A DNA stretch of 33,645 nt from a virus (taxonomy: Duplodnaviria; Caudoviricetes). The notes beneath the pieces are model-generated. The model was not told the origin of the DNA and searched no databases. It saw nothing but the letters and a program-made list of their open reading frames with translations. This document shows, piece by piece, positions 7,992-32,307 of the stretch (positions are counted from its first letter, which is position 1; every line of letters starts with the position of its first letter). The position numbers and the translations under genes are program-made. The stretch is from the IMG/VR virus record IMGVR_UViG_3300021086_000014, positions 1 to 33,645 of that record. One strand, given 5' to 3'.

Positions 7992-8521
7992 GCCTTGGCC
8001 GCCGCAGTCAGCATGTGTTGATGAATGAGGTCCAGGCGGGCGCGGGCTTCGGCGGCGACCTGCGGGTCGCGGATGACGATCGCGGCGTTGTCCTGCAGCG
8101 CCTCGCCGGAGTGCGACCAGTTCGTGGACCCGGTCAGCACGTCGAGCCCGTCCACGACCGCCATTTTCAAGTGCATGATCGCTCCGCGTTCGCTGCGGCC
8201 GATCGCGATCGAATTGGACGGGAACGCGCTCTTGGCCAGCAGCGCCCGCTCGTGCACGCCCCCGGCCTGGCTGGAATCCAGCGTCAGTTGCACGTAGCAG
8301 TGCTCCGCGTCGAGCCTCTCGTGCAGCGCCGACGCCAACTCGTCGTCGTCGAACCCGTACATCCCGAGCACAAGTGAGCGCTGGGCGGAGCGGATGAGAT
8401 CCAGCAGCGCGCCGTGCACGTCGTCGACCGGGGAGTACAGCGAGCGCACATCCGGCGGGTAGCCGGGCGGGAAGCCCCCGCTCTTGTGCTTGTCCAGGGC
8501 GGACAGGTCGGGCAGCGGCAC
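7988..8521 (-). CDS. Phospholipase D-superfamily enzyme with a single HKD motif (Nuc/MitoPLD-like nuclease or phospholipase)
   Basis: [20 protein letters not shown] matches HxKxxxxDxxxxxxGSxN. N-terminal YSPVDD...[16 protein letters not shown]. No signal peptide evident. Confidence 0.9.
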
Positions 8522-8527
8522 AGTCGC

Positions 8528-8980
8528 TCACGCTCCCCCGGTCGGCTCGTTGATCTCGTTGCGGAACGGCATGCGCCGGTCCTGCTCGGTGCCCAGCTCC
8601 CGCACCAGGTACGGGTTCTGTCCGTACCCGTGGCTTGGCGCAAATGGCTTGTCGTCGCCGACCTGGAAGAATTCCATGCACTCGTGCAACTCCACCAGCC
8701 GCACCTGCTCGAAAAGCCAGCGGCGCCAGGACCGCTCGTCGTAGGCGGCCGGGGGCACGGGCAGGTAGTGATTGACCCGGTAGTCGGTTTCTTCGGGATG
8801 GTAGCTGTTGACGCCCAGCGTGGTGATGACCAGGGTGAGCCCTTCGCTGCCCTGGCCGCGGTTGATGTCCGCGAGCGCGAACCGCCACCCCGCCCGGTAG
8901 CGCAGCCGGGCGACGAGCGAGGCCAGGGTGTGCGGGTAGGGCGCCGACTGGCGCATGCCCTCCTCGCGCGCGGCGGTCAT
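8528..8980 (-). CDS. Conserved-looking hypothetical phage protein (W/Y-rich, VELHECMEFF)
   Basis: ATGA overlap with the upstream gene. Globular, aromatic-rich sequence. Confidence 0.75.
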   Translation of the reverse strand: MTAAREEGMRQSAPYPHTLASLVARLRYRAGWRFALADINRGQGSEGLTLVITTLGVNSYHPEETDYRVNHYLPVPPAAYDERSWRRWLFEQVRLVELHECMEFFQVGDDKPFAPSHGYGQNPYLVRELGTEQDRRMPFRNEINEPTGGA

Positions 8981-9228
8981 GTGAAGCTCGGCGGGGTCGC
9001 GCCCGCGTTCGTGGTGTACGAGGTGCTGCCGGTGTCCGCCTTGGCCACCTCCGCGTTGAACACCAGCCCCGCGGGCAGTGCGGCCTTGACCGCCGCGAGC
9101 AGCGCGAACGCGTCCGGGTCCCCGAATGTGGAACTCTTGGTGACACTGAAGGCGATCCCGGAGAACAGGGAACTGTCGCTCGGGTTGATGGCGAAGGTGT
9201 ACTGCGTCTGCGCGTACGTCGAACTCAT
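8977..9228 (-). CDS. Small hypothetical protein (83 aa), possible tail-tip accessory
   Basis: GGGAGGA SD before ATG. Beta-rich composition. Confidence 0.75.
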   Translation of the reverse strand: MSSTYAQTQYTFAINPSDSSLFSGIAFSVTKSSTFGDPDAFALLAAVKAALPAGLVFNAEVAKADTGSTSYTTNAGATPPSFT

Positions 9229-9262
9229 GGCGTCCTCCCGTGGGTGGCTCGCACCGCGGCGG

Positions 9263-9802
9263 CTAGTTGTGCAGGAACCAGATCGTCAGGCTGGAGCACA
9301 GGTCCGAGGCGACGAAGGTGTTCAGGGCGCCGCCGGAGTGCTGGTAGGCGTGGAACTCGATGAAGTCGCCGCTGCCGTTCAGGAAGATCGGGATGGTGGG
9401 TGTCGAGACCGTGGCCGCGTCGGTGGAGGGCGCCTGGAGCATCTGCGCGCCGCCCTGGATCGGGGTGCCGTTTTTCGCCAACCGCGCCCCGCGCGCGCCC
9501 GTGCCGTTCAGTGCGACCGCCGCGACCCCGCACGCCACATACCACCCCGGGACCTGGCCGACATACCGCGAATTGTTCGCCGTCGTACTGTGGCCGCCAT
9601 AGGAGTCGTTGACCGAGGCGTCCAGGGCCACGAACTGCCAGACCGCGGTCGTCGTGCCCTGCGCGGTGGCCTGTGTCAGGTACGCGATGGGCGGGCCGAG
9701 CAGGAAGTTGACGGCGTCGCGCACGCCCGTGTTCCACAGCGCCGAGGTGATGGTCAGCCCGGGCGACTGGGTCGATTCGACGGGCACGGGCAGGTTCGTC
9801 AC
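9263..9802 (-). CDS. Minor tail protein / probable receptor-binding jelly-roll (179 aa)
   Basis: N-terminal SPGLTITSALWN anchor-like segment and WQFVALD...D..GGH....NSRY..QVPGWY pattern. Follows the large tail-tip gene. Confidence 0.75.
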   Translation of the reverse strand: MTNLPVPVESTQSPGLTITSALWNTGVRDAVNFLLGPPIAYLTQATAQGTTTAVWQFVALDASVNDSYGGHSTTANNSRYVGQVPGWYVACGVAAVALNGTGARGARLAKNGTPIQGGAQMLQAPSTDAATVSTPTIPIFLNGSGDFIEFHAYQHSGGALNTFVASDLCSSLTIWFLHN

Positions 9803-9856
9803 GGCGCCCCACCCCCGCCCCGGTGCTGTGGCGCCGCCGGGGCGCGGGGCGCCCGG

Positions 9857-13247: not shown

Positions 13248-16200
13248 CTAGGAGGAGCGGTTGCGCGAGGACTGGTAGGGGGTGTAGCTGGTGGAGTTGC
13301 GCATGCCGACGCGGGTCATGGCCTGTTGTACGACCAGGCCCAGGTCGCGTTCGGCGAGCACGGAGCCGTCGATGCGGAAGTAGTTGTTGACCACCGTCGC
13401 GCCGCCGCTCGGGGGGGCGGGCATGTACGCCGCGCTGCCGGACGCGCCGCCGCCCGTGCCGCGCGCGGCGGCGAACGCGCCGGTCAGGGCGCGGTTGTCG
13501 ATGGGGGCGCGTCCTGTTTGCATGGCGTTGGACACGACGTATTCGCCGCCGTGGACGATGGCGAGCATGGGGGCGTCCTTCGCGCCGGGCACGAACCCCC
13601 CGGAGTCCATGCCCTTGAGGTGCAGCGCCTTGCCGACGATGCCGCCGACGCCGCCCAGTGCGCTCGCGTTGCCGCTCAGCGCGCTGATCGCGCTCGAGAT
13701 CCCGGAAACGGCGCCCGAGATCGTGTCGAAGATCGGTTTGAGGTAGCCCCAGACCGTGGACACGGTGGATTTGAAGCCGCCCCACACCGAGTCCCACACG
13801 CTCTTCACCGTGTTCAGCGCGCCGAGGATGTCGTTGTTGTAGAACGACTTGAGCGGCCGGAATATATTGTCGTCTATCCAGTGATAGATGGCGGCGGCCG
13901 TGGTTTTGATGCCGCCCCAGGCGGCGTCCCACGCGGCCTTCGCCCCGGCGACCGCGGCGCGGAAGGTGGCGGAGAAGAACTCGCCGATCGGGCGCAGCAC
14001 GTCGTTCCACACGAAGGTGTAGGCGGCCTTCGCGGCGCCGACGATGTCGCTCCAGGCGGCCTTCCAGAAATCCCGGAACCAGGCGCACTTGGTCCACAGC
14101 AGCACGAACGCCGCGACCAGCGCCGCGATCGCGAGCACGACCAGGGTGATCGGGTTGGCGGCCATCGCGGCGTCCAGCAGCCACTGCGCGGCGGTCGCGG
14201 CCCGCTCGGCGACGGTCGCCGCGATCAACGCGAGCTTGTCCGCGGTCCAGCCGATCGCGGTGCGCGCCGCCGCCGCCGAGGCCGCAGCGGCGGAGGTCAC
14301 CCAGCCCCAGGTCGCGCTCGCCGAGGACGCGATCGCGCCGCCGACCGAGGAGAGGGTGGCGGTGATGCCGCTCCACGCCGAGGACGCGAACGACGCCGCA
14401 GTCTCGGCGGCACTGGCGCCGAGTGTCTTCAGCCCCGTGGCAGCGCCGGAGGCCGCCGAGGCGATGCCCCGGCCCCAGTCCGCGACCGCGCCGGCGGCCT
14501 TGGACCCGGTGTCCTTGATGGACTGCAGGAACAGTTGGGCGTCCAGTTTCGTCGGCAGCACGTTCTTGGCCGCGTCGGCGGCCTTCCCGGCGAAGTCGGA
14601 GACCAGTCCCTTGGCGACGGACAGGCGCTGGCCCAGCACGTCGACCATCCCGGAGACTCCGGCTTTGAGTCCGTCCATGGCGTACATGCCGCGCGCCCGC
14701 AAGCCGTCGAAGATCTTGGACGCCTCGGAGGTCTTGGACGCTGCGGCCCTCATGCCGTCCAGCGCCGTGCCGATCTGCCCGATCTGGTTGACCGGGAATT
14801 TCAGGATCGCCGTGGACAGGTTCAGGATCCCGGTGGCGGCGTTGATGCTCTTGAGTACCAGCAGGCGGGCGATCAGCAGGCCGAGGACGACCTGCGCGAA
14901 CACGGTGATCAGGGTCCTGTTGCGGTCGAAGAACCTGGCGAGGGCGAGCAGCGCGGGGCCGGCCACGTCTTTGAGGATCCCGCCGACCGCGACGAGCGCG
15001 GCCAGGAACTCCTTGCCGATCAGCAGGGCCGCCGGGCCGACGGCCCGCACCAGTTCCGAGAAGGCCTTGGCCGCGTCCCTGCCGAACACGGTGGCGTCGG
15101 TGGCCAGGGTGCGCAGCACCTGCCCGAGCTGCTGCATCGGCGTGAGCGGCGGCGCGGGTATCGCGGCCTGCATTTCGTTCAGGCGCGCGTTGCCCAGGTT
15201 CGCCGGTGCGGGCGGCTTGCCCGCGGCGCCGGAGAAGCCCGAGGCGATCCCGCCGAACGCCGAGCCGATGGTTTTCGCGATCGGGGCGCCGCGGGTCTCG
15301 AGCAGGGTGATGAACGCGGACACCTTCGGGATCAGGAACTCGCCGATGCGGATCGCCAGGGCGTCGATCCCGGAGTGGATCTCCTTCATCTGCTGCGAGA
15401 ACGTGTTCTTCGTGGTCACCCACGCGTCGCCGAAGGCGCTCACCCCGGAGTCCATCATCGGGTACTTGGTCATCAGGCGGTCGTACTGGCCCATCAGGAC
15501 GGCGACGCCCGCCCCGGCCTTCTTGCCGAACATCTCCGTGATGATCTGGCCCTGCTCCGTCGCCCCGATGCCCGCGGCCTGGAAGTGCGCCTCCAGGTCT
15601 TGGAGCGCGAGCTTCATGCCGCCCTTCTGCATGTCCTGGGCGAGGGTGTTCTGCGTCATCCCGAATTCTTTGAGGTACACGCTCGCGGTCTTCGCCGGGA
15701 CGGCCAGCGCCTGGACCGACATCCGGAACATCGTTCCTGCGGCTGCTCCGCGGATGTTGTTGTCGCCGAACACCGCGAGCGCCGCGCCGGCGTCCTGGAT
15801 GGTCGCGCCGTAGCCCTTCACCACGGCCAGCGCGCCGCCGCTGAACGCCTTGGTCAGGTCGTCCATCGTCATCTCGCCCGAGCCGACCATCGCGTTGAGC
15901 ACGCCCATGGCCTTGGCGGCGTCGGCGATGGGGACGTAGCCCGATGCCATGACCGCGGTCAGCGCGGTGGTCGTCTTGATGAGGTCCGAGTGTCCGACTG
16001 CGGCGCCCTCGGCTGCGATCTTCGTCATCATCAGGGCGTTCGCGGACGTGATGCCCATGCTGGCGAAGCCGGATTCGACGTGGAACAGGGACTGGGACAG
16101 TGATGTCGCGGAGAACCCGACCTGTCCGGCCAGGGCGAGGACGCCGCTGCTCAGTCCGGCGATTTTGTCCTTGCTGACGTCCGCCTGCGTGTTGAGCAGC

Positions 16201-20028: not shown

Positions 20029-20909
20029 CGTTTGCGGCTGAAGCGTTCCAGGAGCCGCTCGGCCTCGTCCACCAGGCCGGAGCCGTCCTTGCGGGTGTCG
20101 GTCTGCCGGGTGCCCGAGGCCATGCGCGTGTCGGGGTAGGCGTCCTCGGCCGCGGTGTCCGGGCGCAGCAGGGACGCGGCCGCGTAGTTGACCACGGCCA
20201 GGCGCATGTCGTGCTCGAAGTTCGTGAAGTCGTGCCCGGCGCCGTGCGCGAACACGGTGGGGGCCGCGAGCGGGACCGCGGTGGCGGCCGGCGGCACGGT
20301 GACGGCGGGCGGGGTGAACGCGCCCGAGACGGTGACGGACTCCTCCGCGCCCGGCTCCCAGATCCGGTAGGGCGCGCCGGGCTGGATCCCGGTGGGGTCC
20401 GTGACGCTCAGGGACACCGCCCCGGCGAGCGCGGCGGCGGACAGGGTGGTGGCGACGTATGCGGCGGTGTAGACCAGCTGCACATGCACCGGGCAGCCCG
20501 CGCCGGGCGGGCCGAACTGCAGCGACCCGGACCAGGGGCCGCCCGCGCCGGTAGTGATCTCCAGGTTGCGCCCGTCCTCGCTCCACACGCCCGGGTTGGC
20601 GATGGTGGTCAGCGCGGTGGGCGTGTACCCGTACGCGACGGAGGTCACGGTGATCACGGGCGTGTGATCGGGGTGGATCTTCAGAGTGCCGTCGCGCCCG
20701 AACCGGGTGCGCAGGCGCTGGGTGTACTGGTGGGCGAGCAGCGGCTGCTCGCAGTACCCCTCGGCCCACGCGGAGGCCATGAGCAGCAGGTTGGTCAGTT
20801 CCGCGATCTGGTCGGGGGCGGAGGCGTCGCCGTAGCGCAGGTCGTCCAGGTCCAGGTAGGTGGGGTGGGCGGTGAACGCCGCGGCGGACACGAACGGGGT
20901 GACGATCAA
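20025..20909 (-). CDS. Head-tail adaptor/connector with an inserted beta module
   Basis: LLMASAWAEGYCEQPL, HVQLVYTAAY, DMRLAVV and EAERLLERF resemble adaptor (gp15/gp6-like) proteins. Confidence 0.75.
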   Translation of the reverse strand: MIVTPFVSAAAFTAHPTYLDLDDLRYGDASAPDQIAELTNLLLMASAWAEGYCEQPLLAHQYTQRLRTRFGRDGTLKIHPDHTPVITVTSVAYGYTPTALTTIANPGVWSEDGRNLEITTGAGGPWSGSLQFGPPGAGCPVHVQLVYTAAYVATTLSAAALAGAVSLSVTDPTGIQPGAPYRIWEPGAEESVTVSGAFTPPAVTVPPAATAVPLAAPTVFAHGAGHDFTNFEHDMRLAVVNYAAASLLRPDTAAEDAYPDTRMASGTRQTDTRKDGSGLVDEAERLLERFSRKR

Positions 20910-21325
20910 CGGTGCCGCCTTCCCGTGTGCCGCCGGGGCCCGTGCCTGCGGTGGGTGTGGCGGCGCACGGGGTGGCGGCGGGTCGTGTGCCTGCGCGCGC
21001 CGTGGCGGCGGACGGTATGGCGGCGGATCGTGTGTCTGCGGTGGGTGTGGCGCGCGGACGTGCGCCGCCGCGCGGTGTGCCGGCGGTGTCTGCCGCGCAG
21101 GGCGGTGGACAGTTTCTTGCGCGTCGCGGCGCTCACCGGGTGGCCGCGGCGGCGCGCCGCGCCCTTGCGCCGGGCGTGGTGCTTGCCCTTAAGGGCCGCG
21201 GAGAGTTTCGCGCGGGTCTTCGCCGACGCCTTGCGCCCCTTGGCGCCCTTGTGCCGCCTGCCCCTGTTGCGTCGGCTGATCCGCGCGCGCGCCGCCTTGG
21301 ACAGGTGCCAGCCGCGGCGCGCCAC
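20906..21325 (-). CDS. Extremely basic Arg/His/Lys-rich protein with three NUMOD3-like motifs
   Basis: HLSKAARARISRRNRG, KASAKTRAKLSAALKG, HPVSAATRKKLSTALRG, then RRHxx repeats. Starts immediately after the upstream TAG, and its stop overlaps the next TTG. Confidence 0.75.
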   Translation of the reverse strand: MARRGWHLSKAARARISRRNRGRRHKGAKGRKASAKTRAKLSAALKGKHHARRKGAARRRGHPVSAATRKKLSTALRGRHRRHTARRRTSARHTHRRHTIRRHTVRRHGARRHTTRRHPVRRHTHRRHGPRRHTGRRHR

Positions 21326-21509: not shown

Positions 21510-23213
21510 TCACCGCCCGGTCACCCCGATCTGCGAGGTGATGTGCACGCCCGCGGTCACCGTCCAGGACACCCGCCAGTTGCCGTTGCCGCACGGCAGG
21601 ACGTTCCCGTTCGCGGTGCCGGGGCCGACCGAGAACGCGTACACCCCGGCCGCGGTGATCACCGGGGTGGAGCCGGCAGCGACCCAGTTGCCGTTACTGT
21701 CCTGCACCTGCAGCGAGTAGGTGACGTTCGTCGCCGTGAGCAGCGTGACGCTGACCGACACCAGGAACAGCGACGCGTTGTTCGGGATCGAGCCGCCCGT
21801 GATGTTCCCGCTGGCCTGCCGCCCCGAGTCGGCGACCGCAGACTCGGTGTACACCGGGAACGCCGCCTGCGTCAGGACGTTGACCGCGCCGTTGCTTCCC
21901 CTGATCCGGTCAAGGCTCGTGCCGTTCCACAGGCCCACCGCGACCACCGGGATGTTCGCGCCCGGCATCGAGTCCTGCGTCGCGGAGCGCCCGAGGTAGT
22001 ACAGCCCGGAGACCGGGTCGTAGACGCACTCCTCCCCGACGCCGATCCCGGCGGGGGCGAACCCGGAAAGGCCCGGCCCCTGCGGCGCGTACACGTCGAA
22101 CCGCGCCAGGGTCTGTGCGGCGTTCACCACCGGGGACTGTAGCGGCACGGTCGCCGAGGAGCCCGGCGTCCACGTCGCCGAGGTGTACACGACCTCCTGG
22201 GCGGCGCCGCCGGACAGGGTGACCGGGGCGCCGGGCTGCAGCAGGTTCGCGGCCGCGGCGGAGCCGAACACGAGCGTGGTGTTGCCCGCGCCCGTCGAAG
22301 TGATCGCCTGGGTCTGGCTGCCCTTGCCCTGCAGGTTGCGGGCCCGGTCGAACTGCAGCCCCGTGGCGAGCCCCGTGGCGAGCGCGGGTCCGCCGGAGGT
22401 GTGCTCGTACCGTGCGGCGATCGCCGCGCCCGCGCCCGACGCCCCGTCCAACTCGCCCGCGGCGGAGCGCTCGGACTCCACCCCGCCCGCCCCGCCGTTC
22501 AGGGCCGGGTTCAGGAAGTAGGCCACGGCGGCGCCGAACCCGGCCGACGGCGACCCGTCCGGGGCGCTCGCGTCGCGGGCCTGGTTGTACACGAACCCGG
22601 ACAGGGCGACCGCGGCGGCGTGCGGCTTGGCGAACGCGGCCGTGAGCGTGGTCGCGGTGGTCGCGGTGACGAACACGTACTCCTGGGCGGCGCCGGCGTC
22701 CACGGACAGGGTGTGCCCGGGCTGGATCGTCCAGGCGGAGCCGCGCACGGCGCCACTCATCGCGGCGGGGGTGATGGTGCGCGTCCCGGCGGTGATGGTG
22801 CCCGCGCCGGTGGTGGTGGTGAACGGCAGCGCCAGTTGCTGCGCGCCGGTGACGATCCCGGCGCCGGGCACGTTGTCGAACCCGGTCTCGCGCTGGCGGT
22901 CCAGGGTGCCTGCGGGGTTGATCGCCTGGGCGACGCCGCCGGTGAGCACCCCGAACGCGGAGCCGGGCAGGGACTGGTTGTCCGCGTTGTGGAACGCGAG
23001 GACCGCGGCGAGGTTGGTGGAGGCGCCGTCCTCGATACGCACGACGCTGGGCGCCAAGGATGATCCGGCCTGGGTCTGCAGCGGGTTGGCCGCGGTGCCC
23101 AGGATGTTGTTCTCGCCGTCGGTCAGCGCGACGCCTTGCGCGCTGGGCGCGTCGGGGTTGGTGGGGGACTGGGTGACGGCGGCGTGCCCGTGCCCGCGGA
23201 CGATCGCGGCCAT
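21510..23213 (-). CDS. Probable head fibre / capsid decoration protein (567 aa, MAAIVRGHGH...)
   Basis: ATG at 23213 overlaps the upstream TGA. Ala/Gly/Thr-rich, repeated LDRxR-type motifs (TLDRQR, FDRAR, SLDRIR), C-terminal jelly-roll-like domain. Located in the head module. Confidence 0.7.
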   Translation of the reverse strand: MAAIVRGHGHAAVTQSPTNPDAPSAQGVALTDGENNILGTAANPLQTQAGSSLAPSVVRIEDGASTNLAAVLAFHNADNQSLPGSAFGVLTGGVAQAINPAGTLDRQRETGFDNVPGAGIVTGAQQLALPFTTTTGAGTITAGTRTITPAAMSGAVRGSAWTIQPGHTLSVDAGAAQEYVFVTATTATTLTAAFAKPHAAAVALSGFVYNQARDASAPDGSPSAGFGAAVAYFLNPALNGGAGGVESERSAAGELDGASGAGAAIAARYEHTSGGPALATGLATGLQFDRARNLQGKGSQTQAITSTGAGNTTLVFGSAAAANLLQPGAPVTLSGGAAQEVVYTSATWTPGSSATVPLQSPVVNAAQTLARFDVYAPQGPGLSGFAPAGIGVGEECVYDPVSGLYYLGRSATQDSMPGANIPVVAVGLWNGTSLDRIRGSNGAVNVLTQAAFPVYTESAVADSGRQASGNITGGSIPNNASLFLVSVSVTLLTATNVTYSLQVQDSNGNWVAAGSTPVITAAGVYAFSVGPGTANGNVLPCGNGNWRVSWTVTAGVHITSQIGVTGR

Positions 23214-23575
23214 CAGGGTGCCTTGTCGGGCACGCGCACCCACTGGCCGTGCGGGCAGCCGACGGCGCCCGCGCCGGGCGGGGGGCCGGCGGGGTGGCAG
23301 ATGCGGCACGGGTCGCCCGGCGCCCCGGCGGTGGTCTCCCAGTGGAACGTCGGCTCCGGCACCGCATCGGGGGTGCCGTTCTTCGCGGGCCGGGCCGGCG
23401 CGTTCGCCGTCGCGGACGCCCCACCCCCCGTGGGGACGGCGCCGCCCGGGACGTCGGGGTCCGCCGGGCGGTCCTGGTCGGCCGCCGGGGCCTGCTTCGG
23501 CCCGGCAGCGGCCTCGCCGTCGGACGCTTCGGGATCGGGCTTCGCTGCGGCGCTCTTGCGCGGGCCGGCGGGCAT
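23213..23575 (-). CDS. Low-complexity protein with a C-terminal Cys/His motif (CRICHP...CPHGQW)
   Basis: GAGGGAGAG SD before ATG at 23575, which overlaps the upstream stop. Confidence 0.7.
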   Translation of the reverse strand: MPAGPRKSAAAKPDPEASDGEAAAGPKQAPAADQDRPADPDVPGGAVPTGGGASATANAPARPAKNGTPDAVPEPTFHWETTAGAPGDPCRICHPAGPPPGAGAVGCPHGQWVRVPDKAP

Positions 23576-23838
23576 CAGCTCTCCCTCTCGCACTCGCCGC
23601 CGCAGCGCGAGCACATCGTGAAATACGAACCCCAGCCGCAGCCGGGGCACCGGTAGCCGATGCCCTTGCGGGCGCCGCCCGCCACGGACACCGGGAACGC
23701 GCCCTCGGACCGCAGCGCCTTGACGTGCATCGGATCCTGCACGTCCATGACCCGGCCGTTGTAGCGGGTGACCTGCCCGGTCTGGGCGCCCTTGACCTCC
23801 ATGCCGGCGACCGCGCCGCTGGGCGCTGCAAGACGCAT
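23575..23838 (-). CDS. Small zinc-ribbon protein (CPGC...CSRC)
   Basis: GAGGAG SD. Two CxxC pairs. Immediately after the major capsid gene. Confidence 0.8.
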   Translation of the reverse strand: MRLAAPSGAVAGMEVKGAQTGQVTRYNGRVMDVQDPMHVKALRSEGAFPVSVAGGARKGIGYRCPGCGWGSYFTMCSRCGGECERES

Positions 23839-23859
23839 GCGGGACTCCTCTGCTCATGG

Positions 23860-23893
23860 CGAGGGCCCGACACATCGCGGTGTCGGGCCCTCG
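23860..23893 (-). terminator. Hairpin after the major capsid gene
   Basis: 14-bp perfect stem CGAGGGCCCGACAC / GTGTCGGGCCCTCG with a 6-nt loop. Confidence 0.65.
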
Positions 23894-23902
23894 GGACTTG
23901 GG

Positions 23903-25648
23903 TCAGCCGGCCGTCACCCCGGAAACGCATCCGTTCCAGCCGGGTGCGAAACACAAAAAGGTGCCGAACCAGTAGCTGGAGGACTCGTACGCGAACTGGG
24001 TCACGGGCCAGTCGATTCCCATGAAGTCCTGCACGTTGCAGATCGACCACACGTTGGAGACCTGGCTGTCCGGGATCGGCAGGGTGTCCGAGACGATCGG
24101 GCACACGCCCTGCGGCAGCCAGGGGCTGACCTCCATCTCGGTGCGCTTGCCGACGGTCTCATTCATGATCGCGACGGCGACGGAGCCGAGCGTCACCCCG
24201 GACACCTGGTCCTGGGTGACCTGCAGGAAGTAGTTGTTCGCCTCCCCGGTCTTCAGGGTCGCGGACAGCTGCTTGCGGTCGGCGCCGTTGAACATGATCC
24301 GGTCGGGCTCGGCCTTGACCGAGTTGTACAGGGACGCGAACGCGTCCTGGAACTCGCTGCCGGGGGTCGCCGTGCCGAACTTCGAGTTGATCTTGACGTT
24401 GTAGCCGGAGGACGCGCCCATGCACCAGGCCAGGATCCCGTCGTACCCCGCCGAGTACGCGGAGGTGTCCGCGGTGGGCGGGTTGGCGCCCGCGACCGGG
24501 ATCGCGCCCTGCAGCACGATGCCGGCGCCGCCCGCGCCGCCGGCGTTGACGGCCTGGTTGGGGAAGCGGCCGTAGAGGAAGAACGCGGAGTTCGCGGGCT
24601 GCGCGGCGCCGGTGCCGATGTACACCTTGTAGCCGAGCGCCGCCGGGACGTCGGTCAGGCGCAGCACCACGTTGTGGCCCGCGGTCGGCGCGATCGTCGC
24701 CACGGTGCTGACGACGGACTCGCCGAACGCGCCCGCGTCGGCGGTGACGTACACGTAGATGTTGGTGGTGTACCCGGTCAGGGCGACCTGGGTGCCCGCG
24801 GTGGTGTTGTCCACCAGGGAGGTGCCGGTGGGCGCGGCGAGCGCGCCCGCGTATCCGGAGGCGGTGCCCCTGCCCATCAGGAGCATCCGCTCCTCCATCA
24901 GCTTGCTGGCGTACAGCAGGCTGGTGCGTGACAACTGCCTTATATCCTGGTACCCCTGCCCTGCATATTGGGCGGACCAGGTGACCTCGTCGGACATCGA
25001 GAACTGCGAGTGCGGCAGCACGACGTCGTAGCCCGCGTACGCGATCTTCGGGCCGCGGGCGTAGTACAGCGAGTTGCTCGCGCCCGAGGGCGCGAAGTTG
25101 GTCTGCGTGGAGTCCGCGATACCGGGGTGGGTGTTGCCCACGCCCCCGGTGCCCGAGCCGGTGATCCCGCTGATGACCTTGAAGCGGTGGCTGGTGCCGA
25201 ATCCCTTGATCCTCGGCATGCGGTTGCTGACCGGCGTCGGGCGCGGCGCGAGGAACTTCGAGGGATCCTCGAGGTCGAAGGCCACCAGGCCGGTGCCGAC
25301 CGGGGAGGTCAGGCTGATGTCCTTGACCAGGTCCGGCTGCTGGCCCTTGAGCGCCTCCAGTGCCTGGGCGACCGAGGCGACCGCGTCCGGGGACATGGAC
25401 TTGGCCAGCTCCGGCGAGCGCAGCGCCTTGGTCATGTACTCGTAGGCGTTGGTGGGGCGCGGGGAGAAGTCGATCGGCTGGCCGGCCTTGAACGAGGTGA
25501 CGATCTCCTCGCGGGTCAGCTCCCGCTCCGGGACGCCCTGGATGGATTTGACCAGTTCGTCGAAGCGGACGGAGACCTCGGCCTTGGACAGCTTCGCGGA
25601 CTCGGGGGACTCGCCGAACATGAGCTCGATGTTCGTGGGCAGAGCCAT
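23903..25648 (-). CDS. Major capsid protein (HK97 fold) with N-terminal propeptide and internal FN3/Ig-like insertion
   Basis: Follows protease-scaffold with AAGGAG SD. FDLEDPSK.L.P..TP..NRMPR.KG.G, MEERMLLMG, SPWLPQG motifs. Inserted YVYVTAD...GES...GYKVYIGT domain. Confidence 0.9.
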   Translation of the reverse strand: MALPTNIELMFGESPESAKLSKAEVSVRFDELVKSIQGVPERELTREEIVTSFKAGQPIDFSPRPTNAYEYMTKALRSPELAKSMSPDAVASVAQALEALKGQQPDLVKDISLTSPVGTGLVAFDLEDPSKFLAPRPTPVSNRMPRIKGFGTSHRFKVISGITGSGTGGVGNTHPGIADSTQTNFAPSGASNSLYYARGPKIAYAGYDVVLPHSQFSMSDEVTWSAQYAGQGYQDIRQLSRTSLLYASKLMEERMLLMGRGTASGYAGALAAPTGTSLVDNTTAGTQVALTGYTTNIYVYVTADAGAFGESVVSTVATIAPTAGHNVVLRLTDVPAALGYKVYIGTGAAQPANSAFFLYGRFPNQAVNAGGAGGAGIVLQGAIPVAGANPPTADTSAYSAGYDGILAWCMGASSGYNVKINSKFGTATPGSEFQDAFASLYNSVKAEPDRIMFNGADRKQLSATLKTGEANNYFLQVTQDQVSGVTLGSVAVAIMNETVGKRTEMEVSPWLPQGVCPIVSDTLPIPDSQVSNVWSICNVQDFMGIDWPVTQFAYESSSYWFGTFLCFAPGWNGCVSGVTAG

Positions 25649-25671
25649 GGCTCTGCTCCTTCCATGCGAAT

Positions 25672-25691
25672 GGCCCCGCGCTGGCGGGGCC
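25672..25691 (-). other. Hairpin between protease-scaffold and capsid genes
   Basis: 8-bp stem GGCCCCGC / GCGGGGCC followed on the minus strand by ATTCGCATG and the capsid SD. Confidence 0.5.
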
Positions 25692-25717
25692 GGATGGTCG
25701 GTGGGGTGCTGCGGCGG

Positions 25718-27697
25718 TCAGGCGTCGGCCTTGGCGAGCAGGTCGCGGGCGCGGTCGCGGTACCCCTGGGCGAGGTCGCGGTTCGCGGCGTACATCTGGG
25801 CCTTCGCCATCAGCCCGGCGGCCTGGCCGCGCAGGCGGGCGGCGTCCGATGTGGTCGCCTCGCTCTGCTGGGCGGCGGTGCGGGTGAGCGCGGGTCCGCC
25901 GGGGATCGGCATTGCCTTGATGGCCTGGAGGTCGCCCTGGGCCTTCGCCAGGTCCGCCGTGAGCGCGGTGACGCGCTCCTCGTCGGCGGCCCGGGCCTTT
26001 GCCACGGCGTTCTTCACGAGGTCTTCGAGCTCTGCCTTGGTCACGGTGTCCGGGGCGGGCGCCGGGTCGGTCTGGGGGGTGTCGTTCTTCGCGAGTGCCG
26101 CGGCGAGGGCGGCGCCGACGATGTCGGCGGCCTGCGCCTTGGTCAGCGGCGGATCTGCGCCCTGCGCATCGTCGGCCTTGGCGGCGGCCTTCGCGGGGGC
26201 CTTCTTCTTCGCCGCGGGCTTCTCGTCGTCCTCGGCGTCGTCTTCGCCGTCCGCCGCGTCGGCGGTGTCGCCGTCCCCGGTGTCGGTGTCCTTCTTCTTC
26301 TTGAAGGGCGCGGCGAGGTTCGGGTTCTTGCCGTCGGCCTTGAGCAGGTCGCCCTCGGCGGGGGCGTCGGCGAGCGTCATCGCGGACCCGTCAGCACCGG
26401 ACTGCTCGTTGCGCTCGTTGGCCTGGAACCATTTCAAAGCGCGCACGGCGTCCAAGAGCAGCGCGATGTCGCAGGCCTCGTTCAGGTTGCCCAGGGCGAG
26501 GGACTCGGCCTCGGACACGATCAGCTTCGCGATACAGGCGATCGCTTCCTGCGCGCCTGCGATGTCGTCGCTCTCGTCCTCCTGGCCGTCGGATCCGCCG
26601 TCGGCGTCGGCCTTGGCGAGGTCGGGCACCAGGGCGCGCACGTCGCGCAGCACCGCCTCTGCCTTCTCGGTCATCTCCGGGCCGGCCTCGGCCTTGGCCT
26701 TGTCGCCCTTGAGGCTGCCGTCGGCGTTCCAGTTCTCGGGCACCATGCCCTCCAATCCGAGGGCCTTGGCCCGCTTGATGACGAACTTCCTGACCGCGTC
26801 GTGGTCGGCGCCGCCGCGCCCGACGGCCTTGACGGCCTTGCGCAGGTCGCTCTTGGTCTTGATCGTGTAGGCGGGGTCGCCGTCCGGGTTCTTCATCGCC
26901 TGCCCGGCGGCCAGGGCGGCGCGCTTCTGCTGCGCCGAGTAGTCCTTGACCAGGTCCGGGGCCGCTGGGGCGGTGTGCACGGCCACGTTCACCACCAGGG
27001 GCGTCGGGGGGTCTGCGGCGTCCGCCTTGGCGGCGTCGGGCGCGCGCACTTGGGCGGGTTCGACGGCGACCTGCGCGCCCGACGCGGCAAGGTCGGCGAG
27101 GGCCTGCTTGACGGGGGACGCGAGGCGGTCGAAGAGTTCGGCGGGCAGGCCGTAGGTCGGAGAGGTGACGCGCGTGAGCACGGGGTCCTCGACGGGCTGC
27201 AACTCGCCCTCGCCCATGGACTTCGCCAGGGGTAGACGCCAATGGTCTGTGATGGTTGCGCTCCCTAGGGAGGGCGCGTCCACGAGGCTGGTCTCGAAGA
27301 TCCTTCCCGCAATCACAACTCCGGCCGGGGCGTCGGCCTTGGTGTGGTCCAGGCGCCAGTTGCGGATGCCGATGGAGAAGCCGTTGAGGACGTCCTCCTC
27401 GACCTTCTCGATCGCGTCCTTGTCGACGACCTTCGCGCCGATGTACCAGCCGTCGGCCTTCTCCTCGAGTTCGATCGCCTTGCCTATCGCCCTCTTGGCA
27501 TCATGCTGTTCACGTAAATTACCTTTACGGAACCAGTCGGGGACCGCGGCCTTCAGCCAGCCCTCGTCCATCCGCTGGTTGTCCGCGTCCAGGTCCGGAC
27601 CGGTGACCTTGCCGTAGACGTAGAGGTGGCCCGTCTGCGGGTCCCGCTCCTTCTTCGTGATCGGGGCGTAGACCTCGAGGAGGTCGGCAGCGGCCAC
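25718..27697 (-). CDS. HK97-type prohead protease fused to a DUF6582-like domain and an acidic scaffold (659 aa)
   Basis: AAGGAGG SD before GTG at 27697. Protease motifs LREQH, LNGFSIG, ETSLVD. Middle domain AYTIKTKSDLRKAVKAVGR...RKFVIKRAKALG...PENW. Acidic coiled-coil C-terminus. Confidence 0.88.
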   Translation of the reverse strand: MAAADLLEVYAPITKKERDPQTGHLYVYGKVTGPDLDADNQRMDEGWLKAAVPDWFRKGNLREQHDAKRAIGKAIELEEKADGWYIGAKVVDKDAIEKVEEDVLNGFSIGIRNWRLDHTKADAPAGVVIAGRIFETSLVDAPSLGSATITDHWRLPLAKSMGEGELQPVEDPVLTRVTSPTYGLPAELFDRLASPVKQALADLAASGAQVAVEPAQVRAPDAAKADAADPPTPLVVNVAVHTAPAAPDLVKDYSAQQKRAALAAGQAMKNPDGDPAYTIKTKSDLRKAVKAVGRGGADHDAVRKFVIKRAKALGLEGMVPENWNADGSLKGDKAKAEAGPEMTEKAEAVLRDVRALVPDLAKADADGGSDGQEDESDDIAGAQEAIACIAKLIVSEAESLALGNLNEACDIALLLDAVRALKWFQANERNEQSGADGSAMTLADAPAEGDLLKADGKNPNLAAPFKKKKDTDTGDGDTADAADGEDDAEDDEKPAAKKKAPAKAAAKADDAQGADPPLTKAQAADIVGAALAAALAKNDTPQTDPAPAPDTVTKAELEDLVKNAVAKARAADEERVTALTADLAKAQGDLQAIKAMPIPGGPALTRTAAQQSEATTSDAARLRGQAAGLMAKAQMYAANRDLAQGYRDRARDLLAKADA

Positions 27698-27718
27698 CTC
27701 GCCTCCTTCGGGCATGCG

Positions 27719-27746
27719 AAAGGGCCGCACCGGCCGGTGCGGCCCT
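27719..27746 (-). terminator. Hairpin/terminator after the portal-MuF gene
   Basis: Perfect 26-bp palindrome AGGGCCGCACCGGCCGGTGCGGCCCT (27721-27746) followed by a short U run on the minus strand. Confidence 0.65.
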
Positions 27747-27774
27747 GCGGGCATTCGGTCCCGGCCGACGGGGG

Positions 27775-30700
27775 TCAGGCCGGGTACAGCCAGCAGCGGC
27801 AGCGGGCGTGCTGGGGCGGGGCGTCGACACCGGTCGGCCACGCCGACCCGAGGGGCAGCGGTCCGGCGCCGGCGTTGTCCAGGCACGGGTCGCAGGTGCG
27901 CTCGTCGGCTTCCGCACCCCAGGAGATCTGCGTGGTCCCGGCGCCCCGGTAGGCGTCGAGGGCGGCCTGGGAGGAGGCGCGGGTCAGTTCGGTCAGCGCG
28001 ACGCACTGCGCCCACGACGCGTCGGCGAGCACCGCGGCCAGCGAGGCGGCGAGGCCGGCGGAGTCCTGCCCCTGTCCGCCCGCGAGTGCCTTTGCCAGGG
28101 CGCCGAGCCGCCCGTTCGCGATGGATGCGGCCCACCCGGAGGCCTGCAGCGCCCACCGCTCGAAGCGGTTCCGTTCCTCGGGCGCCAGGGTGGCGCCCGC
28201 GCCGTTCGTGTCGCCCTCGGCCCAGCCCCATGCGCTCACCCGTCCGCGCCCGGCCAGGACCGCGGTGGCGGCCGCGTCGCCGATGGCGTAGCCCTCGAGC
28301 CAGATCAGGCGCAGCAGCGCGAGCGGCTGGGCGAGGGTGATGCCGCGGCGGTGCAGGAGCGCGAGCGCGGCGGTGGCGGCCCACTGTCGCGTGCCTGCGG
28401 CAGTGTCGGGGGTGGTCCAGTAGTCGGAAACGTCGGCCGGGGCGTAGTCGCCGGGGCTGTAGTCGTCCCCGCCGTCTGCGTCGTCGGCTTTGACGAGCTG
28501 CTGGGCGAGCCACGCCTCGGCCAGTGCGCGGGTGTCCAGTGCGCGGGCCATGGCGCGGGTGATGCGCGGCGCCCACAGGTGCGCGGTTTCGAGGTCCCGG
28601 TCCCAGCCCGGCCAGCGGCCGGGCCGGTCACCGGCTTTTGGGGGTGGTTCGCCGCCGCCCGGGGTGGCGAACACGACACGCGCGTCGCCCCACATGTCGT
28701 CGGGCGCGTCGGCCTTGGTCAGGACCTGCGCGTGGAACACGCGGCCGGCCTTGGGCGCCCGCCGGGCCCAGTTGCGGTAGGCGGCGACCTCCGCCTTGGC
28801 CGCCGCGCCCCGGGGCTTCGACGGGGCCGCGCCGGCGGGCGCCTGCCCGTCCTGCCCCTGGTCGTTCTCGAACCGGTCGGGGATCCCGTTCAGGTTGGCG
28901 TCCTTGTTGGGCGGGGCTTCGAGCGGGGAGATGGTTTCCCCCGCCGGCGCCGTCTTGGACGCCCCCTCCAGGAAGATCACACCGCGGCTGGTGGACACGA
29001 TCGGCATGTCCGCCTCCGCGAACGCGTACCGGGGCAGCCCCAAACGGTCGCGGTCCTCGTTGTAGGTCATGCGCGCGGACTTGACCCGGTTCTCGGCCAC
29101 CGCGTCGGCCGCCGCCTCGTCCTCGTCCTCCAGGCCCAGGATCCGGAACTCAAGCTCGGGCGGCATGGCCAGGTGGCGCCGGGAGATCCCGGTGATCAGC
29201 CCCTGGATCCACCGGTAGGTCGGCATGGTCGCGTTGCGGTCCTTGATGTCCGCCTGGCCCTCGTGGTACCCGGTGGAGCCCAGCCCGCCGGCCTCGGTGA
29301 AATTCAGCTCCGCGATCGTCGTGGCGAAGTGGGAGGCGAGCTGTTTGAGCAGGAACAGGTCGTAGTGCGGCTGGTACTTCTCCGCCACGTCGGGGATCGA
29401 CTCGAGTTCGAACCCGGGGGGCAGGATCCGCATCCGGTGGCGCTCGAGGGTCTGCCCGGACCAGGCGTCGTTCAGCGCGGTCTCGTACTCCAGGACCTGT
29501 TGGGGGGTCCAGGAGTTCAGGGCGGTGTTGCGCAAAAGCCCCGACGGGATGGTGCCGTCGGTGAACTCGGCGCGGATCCAGGCCCTGCGGCGCAGCCACA
29601 CGTCCAGGTCTTCGAGGCACTGCTCGACCGCGCTGAAGCCGTAGAGGGTTTCGGTGCGCACGTTGCGGCGCTTGTAGATCAGGGTGTCGGGGGCGTACCC
29701 GTTGATGACCCGGCCCTGGTCGTCCACGTCGGCGACGTATTCGCCGCGCGGGAAGCCCCACAGGATCTGCTGGTAGGCGGGGCCCGGCGGCAGGGGCTTG
29801 CCGCCCCGGTAGTCCCGCAACACCTTGATGGTGTTGCCGCACCAGGCCGGCTTGCCGTTACGCCGCACGTACAGCACCTCGTTGGGCACTGAAACACAGA
29901 ACACGTCCCCGTCGTACGGGACCGTGTCGGCGTGCCAGGTGCGGGCGTGGGTGTTCGAGAGCCGGATCGAGTACCGCTCGCGCTTGTTCTGTGCGCGGAT
30001 GACGCGCCCGTCGCGCATCACGGTGTCCTTTGTGAACACATCACGACTGACGTTGGCGCACTTGCCCATCTTCTGGGCGATCTCCTGGAGGTCGTCGGCC
30101 ATACGCGGGCTACACGTGACGACCGTTTCCCGGGCGCCGGAGTAGCACCCGTCGCCGAGCATGTAGAAGCGCCAGAAGATCTCAAGCTGGCGCGCGGACA
30201 TGTTCTTAACGGTGTCAGGGGCGTGCTTCTCGTGCGCTTTCCCGAACTGCGCAAGGTAGGAGTAGAGGCACTTGCGGCTGATGACGAACGACTTGCCGGT
30301 ATGGCATACCTCGCGACCGAAGATCCGTGTGAGCAGGTCACGGAACGGGCCGTACCCCTTCGACGCGGGGTCCTGCGAGATGCAGACGGTGTCCTTCTTC
30401 GCGCTGGTGAAACAGCCCTCGGAGAGGTACGCGCCCATGAAGGCCGCGAAGTCGTCGCCGCTGCACTCGAACGGCAGTGACGTGGTGCGGCCGGAGGCGG
30501 GCAGCTTGAACTCACCCAGGTCGGGTGCGTTCCACCGGGAGGTCATGGGGATCTTCGACGCCTGGCCGTTTCCGTGCTCGGCGAGGGCGGCGGCGGTCAC
30601 GATGGACTCGCCGCGTTCGCGCCAGCTAGATCCCCCGAGTGCCCGCGGCGTGGCCGTGACGAGCATCCGGTGGTTTCCGGTCACGAGAATGTCTAGCGAC

Positions 30701-31593
30701 TTCGATGAGAAGTGGTAGAGATCGCCCTTGTGCGGGGCGCGGTGGAAGTAAGTGGCCTGCTGCCACTCGAACTCGTGCGTCTTGGGATTGCGCGTCGCGA
30801 AGTCGTCGTCCGCGCAAGTGTCCGCGAAGCGCAGCCAGCCGCGCCGCGTCAAAACTTCGGTGTCGTCGGAGTAGCAGGACCCGTCCAATATCTCTAAAGC
30901 GTACAGGTCCCCGCCGTATGTCTTCCTCGGATAGATCGCGACCCCGTCGAGCACCAGGTGCTCCTCGAGGAGTTTGCCGATCCAGTCGGTCCAGTCCTCG
31001 TCCTGCCCGGGGTCGGGACGCTCCCAGAACGCGGAGCAGCGCGCGATCTGCGGCCCGAGGCGTTTGCGCAGGTCGGCTTCGACGTCGGCGCGCGAGGACG
31101 ACGGGCTGTCGGCCTCGGCCTGGGCGACGGCCTGCTTGGTGACGGTGATCGCCCATTCGAGGGTGGTGATCTCGTCCTTGCGGATCTGGATGCAGCGTCG
31201 CGGGATGCCCCCGGCGCTGGCGGCGTCGCGCAGTACCTTCCAGGGCACGAGCCGGTCGGTGACCCCGGGCAGGTTGGTGGAGACGGGGTATTCGGTGAAG
31301 CGGGGTTCGGGGCGGGCGGTGTCGCGGCGTACGGGGTCGATGGCCGCGGGGATCAGGGCGAGGCCGGGGCCGAACGCGACCTGCGGGTCGAGCCTTGGCA
31401 GGGGGTTGAAGCCGCCGTTGGTGGCGGGTGCGTTGTTGACTGCGGCGAGCAGGGCGGCGACCTGGGGGCCGGTGTAGGTGGTGGCGCCGGGTCCGATGCC
31501 GGGGGCGGCGGCCTTGTTCATTTCGGCCTGGGTGGAGCGGCGCACCTGGTAGTGCTGGCCGTTGCGTCGGTTGTTCTTGCTGCGGCGCGACAC
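27775..31593 (-). CDS. Portal protein with intein, fused in frame to a C-terminal MuF (Mu gpF-like minor head) domain
   Basis: Portal motifs LEILDGS|TIK, YGFSAVEQ, FTDGTIPSG, MTYNEDRDRLGL. C-terminal TELTRA...WGAEADERTCDPC...PPQHARCRC is the MuF signature. The start at 31593 (GTG) is approximate; ATG at 31521 is an alternative. Confidence 0.9.
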   Translation of the reverse strand: MSRRSKNNRRNGQHYQVRRSTQAEMNKAAAPGIGPGATTYTGPQVAALLAAVNNAPATNGGFNPLPRLDPQVAFGPGLALIPAAIDPVRRDTARPEPRFTEYPVSTNLPGVTDRLVPWKVLRDAASAGGIPRRCIQIRKDEITTLEWAITVTKQAVAQAEADSPSSSRADVEADLRKRLGPQIARCSAFWERPDPGQDEDWTDWIGKLLEEHLVLDGVAIYPRKTYGGDLYALEILDGSCYSDDTEVLTRRGWLRFADTCADDDFATRNPKTHEFEWQQATYFHRAPHKGDLYHFSSKSLDILVTGNHRMLVTATPRALGGSSWRERGESIVTAAALAEHGNGQASKIPMTSRWNAPDLGEFKLPASGRTTSLPFECSGDDFAAFMGAYLSEGCFTSAKKDTVCISQDPASKGYGPFRDLLTRIFGREVCHTGKSFVISRKCLYSYLAQFGKAHEKHAPDTVKNMSARQLEIFWRFYMLGDGCYSGARETVVTCSPRMADDLQEIAQKMGKCANVSRDVFTKDTVMRDGRVIRAQNKRERYSIRLSNTHARTWHADTVPYDGDVFCVSVPNEVLYVRRNGKPAWCGNTIKVLRDYRGGKPLPPGPAYQQILWGFPRGEYVADVDDQGRVINGYAPDTLIYKRRNVRTETLYGFSAVEQCLEDLDVWLRRRAWIRAEFTDGTIPSGLLRNTALNSWTPQQVLEYETALNDAWSGQTLERHRMRILPPGFELESIPDVAEKYQPHYDLFLLKQLASHFATTIAELNFTEAGGLGSTGYHEGQADIKDRNATMPTYRWIQGLITGISRRHLAMPPELEFRILGLEDEDEAAADAVAENRVKSARMTYNEDRDRLGLPRYAFAEADMPIVSTSRGVIFLEGASKTAPAGETISPLEAPPNKDANLNGIPDRFENDQGQDGQAPAGAAPSKPRGAAAKAEVAAYRNWARRAPKAGRVFHAQVLTKADAPDDMWGDARVVFATPGGGEPPPKAGDRPGRWPGWDRDLETAHLWAPRITRAMARALDTRALAEAWLAQQLVKADDADGGDDYSPGDYAPADVSDYWTTPDTAAGTRQWAATAALALLHRRGITLAQPLALLRLIWLEGYAIGDAAATAVLAGRGRVSAWGWAEGDTNGAGATLAPEERNRFERWALQASGWAASIANGRLGALAKALAGGQGQDSAGLAASLAAVLADASWAQCVALTELTRASSQAALDAYRGAGTTQISWGAEADERTCDPCLDNAGAGPLPLGSAWPTGVDAPPQHARCRCWLYPA
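29833..30876 (-). mobile_element. Intein with LAGLIDADG homing endonuclease in the portal gene (348 aa)
   Basis: Starts CYSDDTEVLTRRGW (block A), VTGNHRM (block B TxxH), FMGAYLSEGC and YMLGDGC (LAGLIDADG blocks), YDGDVFCVSVPNEVLYVRRNGKPAWCGN, followed by +1 Thr. Lower GC3 than the host gene. Confidence 0.95.
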
Positions 31594-31666
31594 CGGGGAT
31601 CCGACCCCCTCGGCGTGGGTCGGGCGCTGCCGCGCCGCCCGGGGCGGGCGGTGGCATCCTTGGCCC

Positions 31667-31930
31667 ATGCGGATCACGTTGCGGCGGCCCGCGGAGTCGG
31701 GCTGCGTCTTCGGCGGGCAGGCCCTGGACTCGAACGTCGGCACGACGACCCCGGTGGATCTCGGCGCACACCGGGCCGAGGGGACGGTCGTCGCGGCGCG
31801 GGTGGTCGAGGACGGCCGCGCGGTGGAGGTGACGGTCGAGATTGCCGAGGACGAGCAGGTGCGGCGGCTGGAGTCCGCGCTTTCGCCACGGCTTGGCCAC
31901 CACTCGGTCGGCGGGGCGCCCTCGGAGTGA
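31667..31930 (+). CDS. Small opposite-strand moron-like gene (87 aa, MRITLRRPAESG...)
   Basis: Strong plus-strand GC3 bias. CATCCT -10-like hexamer 6 nt before ATG and no SD, suggesting a leaderless transcript. Confidence 0.65.
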   Translation: MRITLRRPAESGCVFGGQALDSNVGTTTPVDLGAHRAEGTVVAARVVEDGRAVEVTVEIAEDEQVRRLESALSPRLGHHSVGGAPSE

Positions 31931-32307
31931 GCGTTTCCCGGCCGCCCCGCTGCCAGCGGTCGCACGAGGTACTCGAACCTGAACTCGACGACGGGCAGTG
32001 CGCGCAGCATGGCGGCCCCGGCGTGTCCGGCTTCGGTGAGCAGCCGGGCGGCGACCACGCAGGCCTGGGCGGTGATGTCGTCGATGCTCATGCCCGCGAA
32101 GCGCTCATCCCACCGCAGGCTGAACCGGATGTGCGGTGCGAGCCAGTCGTCTGCGGTGGCCTCACCCCAGGGGGCGACGGTGATGTCCGGGTCGGCTTCG
32201 GGCAGCGTGTCGACCGGTATGAGCGTGAAATCGCCCGGGCCGGGCCCGTGCACGGTAACCACCCGCCTGCGCGGTGGTCCGGCACCGGGCCCGGTCGTGT
32301 CGCTCAC
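31931..32307 (-). CDS. Hypothetical protein (MSDTTGPGAG...EFRFEYLVRP) lacking its own stop; frame continues into the portal
   Basis: GTG at 32307 overlaps the upstream TGA. Protein-like for about 115-125 codons, then reads antisense through 31667..31930 with no stop. The lower boundary is approximate. Confidence 0.55.

Follow-up and report, generated by a model that had tools for sequence, protein, structure and literature searches.

The window analysed here, from a GC-rich soil phage, is the whole of IMG/VR virus record IMGVR_UViG_3300021086_000014 (33,645 nucleotides), whose late operon includes three head genes: a portal gene, a prohead protease-scaffold gene and the major capsid gene. Within these otherwise GC-rich genes we find five short patches of rare codons. 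Four of the five lie at or beside an intein or a slot that holds a nuclease gene in relatives, and the explanation that we favour, and consider probable, is that these four patches are target alleles resistant to cutting by homing endonucleases, which have outlasted two free-standing nucleases that the phage is likely to have lost. Patch by patch, support for this reading from the sequence comparisons is good in two cases, moderate in two more and absent for the fifth. The reading is built on the patches themselves, the elements found in relatives, the link between these elements and recoding, two element remnants and the likeness of spacers; cleavage is what we infer from them.

A first-pass annotation of the window had described six islands in which genes that use almost only G/C-ending codons switch to rare ones. 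The quoted codons are indeed present, in frame on the minus strand, and the third-position GC content (GC3) of the surrounding head genes is 0.92-0.96. Five of the six islands are real. For each we computed a gene-wide P from 5000 within-gene synonymous shuffles, as the probability that a window of that density arises at any place in its gene; these values are optimistic, because window widths were chosen after viewing the data. In the protease gene, 10 of 15 codons are rare at amino acids (aa) 57-71 (positions 27485-27529; P=0.0002) and 11 of 30 at aa126-155 (27233-27322; P=0.001). The capsid gene has 8 of 14 at aa227-240 (24929-24970; P=0.0002) and 6 of 12 at aa564-575 (23924-23959; P=0.0006), and the portal gene has 7 of 16 at aa221-236 (30886-30933; P=0.004). 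All five head patches thus exceed permutation noise. Furthermore, a width-free scan for runs of rare synonymous codons across 24 genes, with 300 shuffles, returned the same five patches as its top five segments; five segments scored at least 8, compared with a null mean of 0.83 and a null maximum of 4, although taken singly the top segment (18.3) alone is above the 99% null maximum of 12.5. The sixth island, in the tape measure gene (aa915-922, 13863-13886, minus strand), does not belong with them: 4 of its 8 codons are rare (P=0.18), its segment score of 7.5 is under the null mean maximum of 8.4, and no relative aligned well there. We regard it as noise.

Assembly error is an unlikely cause of the patches, since a second assembly, possibly from the same sample, agrees letter for letter over 23000-32000. 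At the patches, one DNA sequencing run, maybe of the source sample, revealed no alternative allele. The majority of relatives have common codons at each of the patches, evidence against a regulatory site conserved there. Compared with the majority codon among 12 close loci, 58 patch codons differ, 45 of them synonymously; the other 13 alter the amino acid, so the earlier suggestion that recoding falls where the protein cannot change holds in part. The related suggestion that the islands sit on conserved motifs fits capsid aa221-240 (conservation 0.94-0.96), portal aa220-239 (0.83-0.85) and protease aa61-70 (0.79); it does not fit the capsid C-terminal patch, which is itself variable and adjoins the longest invariant run of the protein, aa551-560.

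Relatives were collected by scans of viral, metagenome and genome collections. The scans gave 94 GC-rich loci, which were reduced to 53 distinct loci (L numbers below) by collapsing those with more than 97% codon identity and taking out the window's own record. Each element test used the loci with both flanking genes, and GC-rich loci were scored while low-GC loci were not. The head module of the window and its relatives contains four element types: a portal intein, an endonuclease-VII-type gene, a capsid intron with a DUF559 nuclease reading frame, and an HNH gene. The first-pass annotation had also raised the idea that relatives carry inteins or introns at exactly the patch codons. Within the length limits of the searches, no such inserts were seen at the protease motifs among the 88 protease relatives listed (376-731 aa), or at capsid aa227-240 among the 120 best matches (438-587 aa) out of 2648 capsid relatives.

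The strongest case for a homing-endonuclease target is the capsid 3′ patch. We take the gene at 23903-25648 (minus strand) to be the major capsid gene because of its position and conservation, together with a 22% match to a protein annotated as major head protein; its 3′ patch (aa564-575, minus strand) is the predicted HNH target region. A full HNH gene directly follows the capsid gene in L019, L092, L157, L159 and L174, and L006 retains a 17-aa HNH remnant (E 2e-5), so the slot is full in five and holds a remnant in one of 41 scorable loci; the carriers are scattered over the capsid tree. The rare-codon fraction at capsid aa558-578 is 0.27 in the five HNH loci and 0.11 in the other 36 (p=0.0042), with similar backgrounds (0.041 and 0.045, respectively), and the best of 113 scan windows separating HNH-bearing from HNH-free loci is aa565-579. 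When the remnant locus is counted as a carrier, the fractions are 0.29 (6 loci) and 0.10 (35 loci; p=0.00076), and this locus has the top count in the table, 8 rare codons. In all six pairs of near relatives with and without HNH the carrier is richer in rare codons, by a small margin in some (+1 for L019/L020, +2 for L006/L008), and nucleotide identity drops at the patch in five of the six, for example from 0.97 to 0.86 in L092/L014. Cys566 is spelled TGT in 6 of 6 HNH loci and 6 of 32 others, as well as in the window, a comparison made after viewing the data; Cys574 is TGC in 17 of 17 relatives. Residues 563 and 564, next to the longest invariant run, rank 17th and 11th in entropy among 580 columns.

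The window itself has no HNH gene, in that no nuclease match was found. Its post-capsid spacer (23839-23902, minus strand), which is the relatives' HNH slot and is empty here, nevertheless contains a hairpin like that 3′ of the HNH gene. This spacer is most like those of L006, L003, L157, L092 and L174, and less like that of L005, whose capsid is the closest. Four of these five most similar spacers come from HNH-bearing or remnant loci, of which there are six among the 41 (p=7e-4). A post-HNH-like spacer despite the lack of HNH suggests that an ancestor carried the gene or received its flank.

The second well-supported case is the portal patch. The portal gene (27775-31593, minus strand) is a single 1272-aa frame in which the portal is fused to a MuF/minor-head domain (Pfam Phage_portal and Phage_Mu_F; PHROG 2662 portal) and which contains an in-frame intein. 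Single-frame portal-MuF fusions occur in the window and in most GC-rich relatives. The intein (29833-30876, minus strand) runs from Cys240 to Asn587 and is followed by Thr; the usual penultimate His is Gly. A homing endonuclease is predicted inside it, from LAGLIDADG-like motifs that were read by eye. The intein gave no Pfam or NCBIfam match for a Hint or endonuclease domain, and its PDB matches, to mini-inteins, are weak (E 0.022 and 0.42). Two other distinct close loci carry the insert (L005 and L020), and 33 are without it. The window's intein is 86% identical to that of L005 and 80% identical to that of L020, while the exteins of the window and L020 are 69% identical.

The portal patch lies directly 5′ of the intein (aa221-239, 30877-30933, minus strand). 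At aa220-239 the rare-codon fraction is 0.35 in the three intein loci, including the window, and 0.05 in the 33 empty ones (p=0.0018); this is the best of 42 windows for association with the intein, and the two groups are equal over the remaining gene. No intein-free locus (0 of 33) has at least three rare codons at aa230-239, where the window has four. The last 33 nucleotides of the patch are identical to those of intein-bearing L005 and absent from the 33 empty alleles, while the flank in L020 has other rare codons than the window and L005, and more distant carriers are also spelled differently. When inteins at the same site in distant portals are included, 7 of 12 distinct loci (the window counted) have an enriched 5′ flank at p<0.05; 14 of the 25 collected loci were scored. 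Together with the counts in the empty loci, this indicates that the patch travels with the intein, mostly on the 5′ side, and not obligatorily. The suggestion in the first-pass annotation that the patch may be an intein co-conversion tract is in line with this, though plain co-conversion falls short in that several lineages hold different rare codons at the flank. A homing-endonuclease reading of the portal patch is supported by the comparison of flanks. A related intein occupies a second portal site further downstream, after ILNAN (L310 and L314, 4001-5203); in L314, six of the ten codons immediately preceding it are rare.

The prohead protease-scaffold gene (25718-27697, minus strand) matches TIGR01543 at E 6.6e-5, which is below the cut-off, and the PHROG head maturation proteases. 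Its first patch (27485-27529, minus strand) surrounds NLREQH, whose His65 we take to be the likely catalytic histidine, and its second (27233-27322, minus strand) flanks ETSLVD, whose Ser137 is presumably the catalytic serine. Over aa30-76, 11 of 47 codons are rare in the window, compared with 2 and 3 of 47 in the nearest proteases, L081 and L007. At the place of the second patch, L005 and the nuclease-bearing L032 and L083 have different rare codons. Also inside the second patch, residue 143 (27271-27273, minus strand) is Ser in the window and Cys in nearly all close proteases.

Between the portal and protease genes, L026, L032 and L083 carry a full endonuclease-VII-type gene and L162 a remnant (E 1e-31), so that this slot is full in three and holds a remnant in one of 37 loci. 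Individual gaps were assigned by reading their content: that of L178 holds a transposase-like reading frame, that of L153 has no nuclease match and that of L162 has the endonuclease-VII remnant. With loci classified in this way, the rare-codon fraction at protease aa30-76 is 0.24 in the four element loci and 0.12 in the other 33 (p=0.0032), and each of the window's two protease patches gives p=0.019. The remnant locus L162 has the top count in the protease table, 13 rare codons, and the non-carriers with high counts, L005 and L029, are sisters of the carriers L083 and L162 in the protease tree. In the window the slot (27698-27774, minus strand) is empty, with zero nuclease matches, and has a hairpin like that 3′ of the nuclease gene; the four endonuclease-VII loci rank 2, 6, 8 and 9 of 37 in spacer likeness to it (p=0.0019). 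From these comparisons the protease patches are likely paired with the endonuclease-VII element. The three full nucleases are 41-64% identical to each other, so it is plausible that variants target different sites, the His or the Ser motif. When the L083 nuclease was used as the query of a scan, most matches were unrelated endonuclease-VII proteins, and no new head-module carrier was among them. In L178 the same slot is occupied, by open reading frame reading, by an IS630-like transposase (8543-9816).

In the mechanism that we propose, a free-standing nuclease would cut a conserved stretch of a neighbouring gene in a co-infecting relative, and repair would then copy the nuclease gene together with the target in its donor form, which would have to differ so as to escape the donor's own enzyme. 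Since the protein tolerates little change and about 95% of common codons end in G or C, escape would be limited to rare codons and the few residues that vary. If the nuclease gene was later deleted, or if conversion tracts were short, the resistant allele could be left behind. The candidate pairings are HNH with capsid aa558-578, the endonuclease-VII type with the 5′ third of the protease gene, where variants may be split between the His and Ser motifs, and the intein endonuclease with the portal 5′ flank. Nuclease-type spacers in the window, together with the remnants in L006 and L162, make it likely that the window has lost both its HNH and its endonuclease-VII gene. The arms race with homing endonucleases proposed in the first-pass annotation is supported for the portal and capsid C-terminal patches, and less firmly for the two protease patches; this support does not extend to the mid-capsid patch, which has no partner in the loci seen, or to the tape measure island.

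A further element, absent from the window, is found within the capsid gene of relatives. L005 (8946-10000) and L011 (5733-6792) carry an out-of-frame insert of about 1.05 kb with a DUF559 nuclease reading frame, and the corresponding group-I-like intron site in the window (aa128-130, 25259-25267, minus strand), which is not among the places named in the first-pass annotation, is empty. An intein was ruled out, as the insert is out of frame and intron-like. The insert has no Rfam match (RF00028); it shares blocks of 23-25 nucleotides, 91-96% identical, with Rfam-positive introns of L062 and L070, and at its junction the exon ends in T and the insert in G. As a control, the best of 113 windows for association with this intron is its own insertion site. 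Part of this signal may be a splicing need, the exon-terminal U. L001, which lacks the intron, has retained a 3′ flank of the intron type. Across the site the window differs by two amino acids from most close relatives, with D-P-S in place of A-P-A, and variability among close relatives is high at the surrounding capsid residues 128 and 132. In low-GC relatives, introns of about 220 nucleotides lie at several positions in the last 50 capsid codons (L062 4148-4346, L070 3362-3551, L066 5950-6470 and L130 4300-4550, with two in tandem in L066); two of these low-GC capsid introns are Rfam-positive.

The fifth patch, in the middle of the capsid gene (aa227-240, 24929-24970, minus strand), covers the near-invariant motif QYAGQGYQDIRQLS, and it has 10 synonymous and no amino-acid differences from the relatives' majority. 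Its spelling is shared with L001 and L012, which likewise have 8 rare codons there, and in part with L005, which has 4; all are of one clade. A split at aa227-240 was found in none of the fetched loci, which include those obtained by motif scans on either side of the site and are within the length limits of the searches. A link to HNH was rejected (p=0.99), as was one to the aa129 intron (2 loci, p=0.044, due to L005 alone). By analogy with the other patches, we predict that this patch marks an element that has yet to be sampled.

Several observations weigh against the homing-endonuclease interpretation. In all carrier/non-carrier comparisons the loci are mutually related and the element groups small (2-6). 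At the capsid 3′ end, HNH-bearing L019 has just 2 rare codons and the HNH-free L044, L008, L005 and L181 have 5-7. The likeness of spacer hairpins may partly follow clade, and the Cys566 test and window edges were picked post hoc. At the portal, 5 of the 12 same-site intein loci have no enriched 5′ flank. Furthermore, an allele filled by the intein would be expected to be immune in any case; recoding there calls for a further step, which may be self-protection of the retained half-site, error-prone repair or a rival nuclease. The protease link was non-significant by gap length alone (p=0.07, 0.098 and 0.34) and emerges solely with L178 and L153 moved out and L162 moved in. The protease signal is also broad, peaking near aa26-40, off the window's patches, and the control window aa77-125 gives p=0.076; close clade members likewise rank high in likeness to the portal-protease spacer. 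Finally, a partner of the mid-capsid patch is absent from every locus seen; at this patch HNH loci are free of rare codons, and a single one occurs in the intron-bearing L011.

The main rival is that the patches come from homing but are neutral, either through error-prone repair of repeated breaks or through flanks co-converted from lower-GC donors, two routes that Repar and Warnecke proposed for yeast introns (PMC5378118). This explanation predicts the same association with elements as the favoured one. It also agrees with the higher rare-codon fraction of the intein (0.11, compared with 0.04 in the exteins), with the 33 identical nucleotides before the intein in the window and L005, and, for import, with the frequent spelling of Q-L-S as CAG TTG TCA in low-GC relatives, as in the mid-capsid patch. 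However, the patch peptides (HDAKRA, YGGDLYALEIL, AQYAGQG) are those of the GC-rich clade and not of the sampled low-GC phages, and AGG and ATA are absent at the patch places among the 49 distinct low-GC rows listed. Different lineages hold different rare codons at one site, and an identical rare flank has been kept beside an intein that is 14% diverged, and both points count against this rival. We therefore consider neutral damage or import rather unlikely.

An improbable source of the patches as a set is evasion of attack on conserved motifs, whether by CRISPR spacers of the host or by rival phages with RNA-guided nucleases. It would suit the mid-capsid patch, which is purely synonymous and has no partner, but it does not predict the link to particular elements, remnants and spacers. 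The 26-nucleotide mid-capsid site written in common codons was met once in a set of 401 actinobacterial genomes and in 3 genomes of an overlapping set of 201, and all four matches are prophage capsid genes, with none in an array; as one site in one limited genome pattern search, this is a weak test, and it lends no support to the CRISPR-spacer branch of the earlier proposal. Embedded signals, such as internal promoters, protein-binding sites or translational pauses, are slightly less probable still. AT-rich islands in GC-rich DNA can serve as promoters, and the mid-capsid spelling is common to three phages and the portal flank to two. Against such signals, most relatives have common codons at every patch, the recoded versions differ among themselves, and a sigma-70 scan of 23700-31700, blind to other sigma factors, found 0 promoter-like sites. 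Chance clustering accounts for the tape measure island and might be entertained for the four head patches that singly fall below the genome-wide 99% maximum, but the gene-wide P of at most 0.004 for all five, the excess of high-scoring segments and the finding that other loci, too, are enriched at some of these sites leave it next to no probability.

The remainder of the 33.6-kb record includes a serine integrase, and its late operon, on the minus strand, comprises portal-intein-MuF, protease-scaffold, capsid, tail genes and the tape measure. Relatives occur as prophages in Actinacidiphila, Actinocrinis and Streptomyces records, which makes an actinomycete the probable host. Among cultured phages none is near, the best INPHARED capsid match being 26%, and a capsid search across 301 genomes gave a known prophage as its sole match. 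Among the tail and lysis genes is a phospholipase-D-family protein (7988-8521, minus strand). A small Arg/His/Lys-rich protein (20906-21325, minus strand) carries NUMOD3, a motif known from homing endonucleases, and is perhaps a nuclease-derived DNA-binding or DNA-condensing protein; in close relatives, similar basic proteins occur at another position, ahead of the tail tube gene.

The targets of free-standing homing endonucleases lie off their genes and are normally found by experiment alone. At 95% GC3, a resistant allele would be visible as rare codons, from which targets can be proposed with a precision of about 60 bp. Judging by the remnants and spacers, resistant alleles seem to survive the loss of the nuclease, a point of relevance to the end of the homing cycle and to the mosaic nature of essential phage structural genes. 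Rare-codon islands, moreover, need not signify foreign DNA or regulatory sites. More speculatively, and with somewhat less than even confidence, we suggest that rare-codon islands in GC-rich phages are a readable record of earlier homing conflicts in which one genome stacks resistant alleles against three to four nucleases that it does not carry, that they map the targets of HNH and zinc-repeat endonuclease-VII enzymes, and that the mid-capsid patch points to a nuclease or guide-directed system, so far undiscovered, that targets QYAGQGYQDIRQLS.

Several of these components are known from other systems. Intronless homing by free-standing endonucleases is established in T4-like phages, as is marker exclusion (PMC2988022). 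In actinobacteriophages, inteins are known to occur in portal proteins (10.1101/2025.01.02.630785), and phage nuclease genes cluster near capsid and other essential genes (PMC10448857). In the latter two studies resistance by target mutation is raised as future work; the word ‘synonymous’ is absent from their main texts, whose accessible parts describe no codon-level target footprints. A literature search that left subscription journals and supplements outside its range found no paper locating phage homing-nuclease targets by rare-codon islands.

The closest precedent is MobE/nrdB, where the target is a conserved block beside a polymorphic stretch that is proposed to protect the carrier (PMC2790892). 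As there, a nuclease gene lies, in relatives, between conserved essential genes, its target would be in a neighbouring gene and flanks would be co-converted, and the capsid 3′ site likewise has the invariant aa551-560 beside two more-variable residues. Unlike MobE/nrdB, the present case concerns actinophage head genes and nucleases of the HNH_3 and endonuclease-VII types; with GC3 at about 95%, the signal, known from sequence alone, can be read as rare codons, and it stands in a genome without the nuclease genes. In the WHO/FBA1 system of Torulaspora yeasts, every element brings along a resistant form of the gene that it targets, and FBA1 has diversified synonymously as well as at a few residues that vary between invariant ones (10.64898/2026.08.13.744650), a layout that the capsid 3′ end resembles. 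However, WHO elements carry a duplicate 3′ half of the host gene and form clusters, and the carrier loci here have neither: they have single copies of the capsid and protease genes and single nuclease genes. Exon sequence is also altered beside mobile introns, in co-conversion tracts and with raised diversity (PMC5378118). As with those tracts, a footprint can stay without its element, as in L001; the difference is that a co-conversion tract fits directly at the intein and intron sites only, and three patches have no insertion at their own position. The principle of such conflict is thus already known, and what the window likely adds is a head module with four element types in which scars outlast element loss and predict targets, a well-controlled case with testable pairings of element and target.

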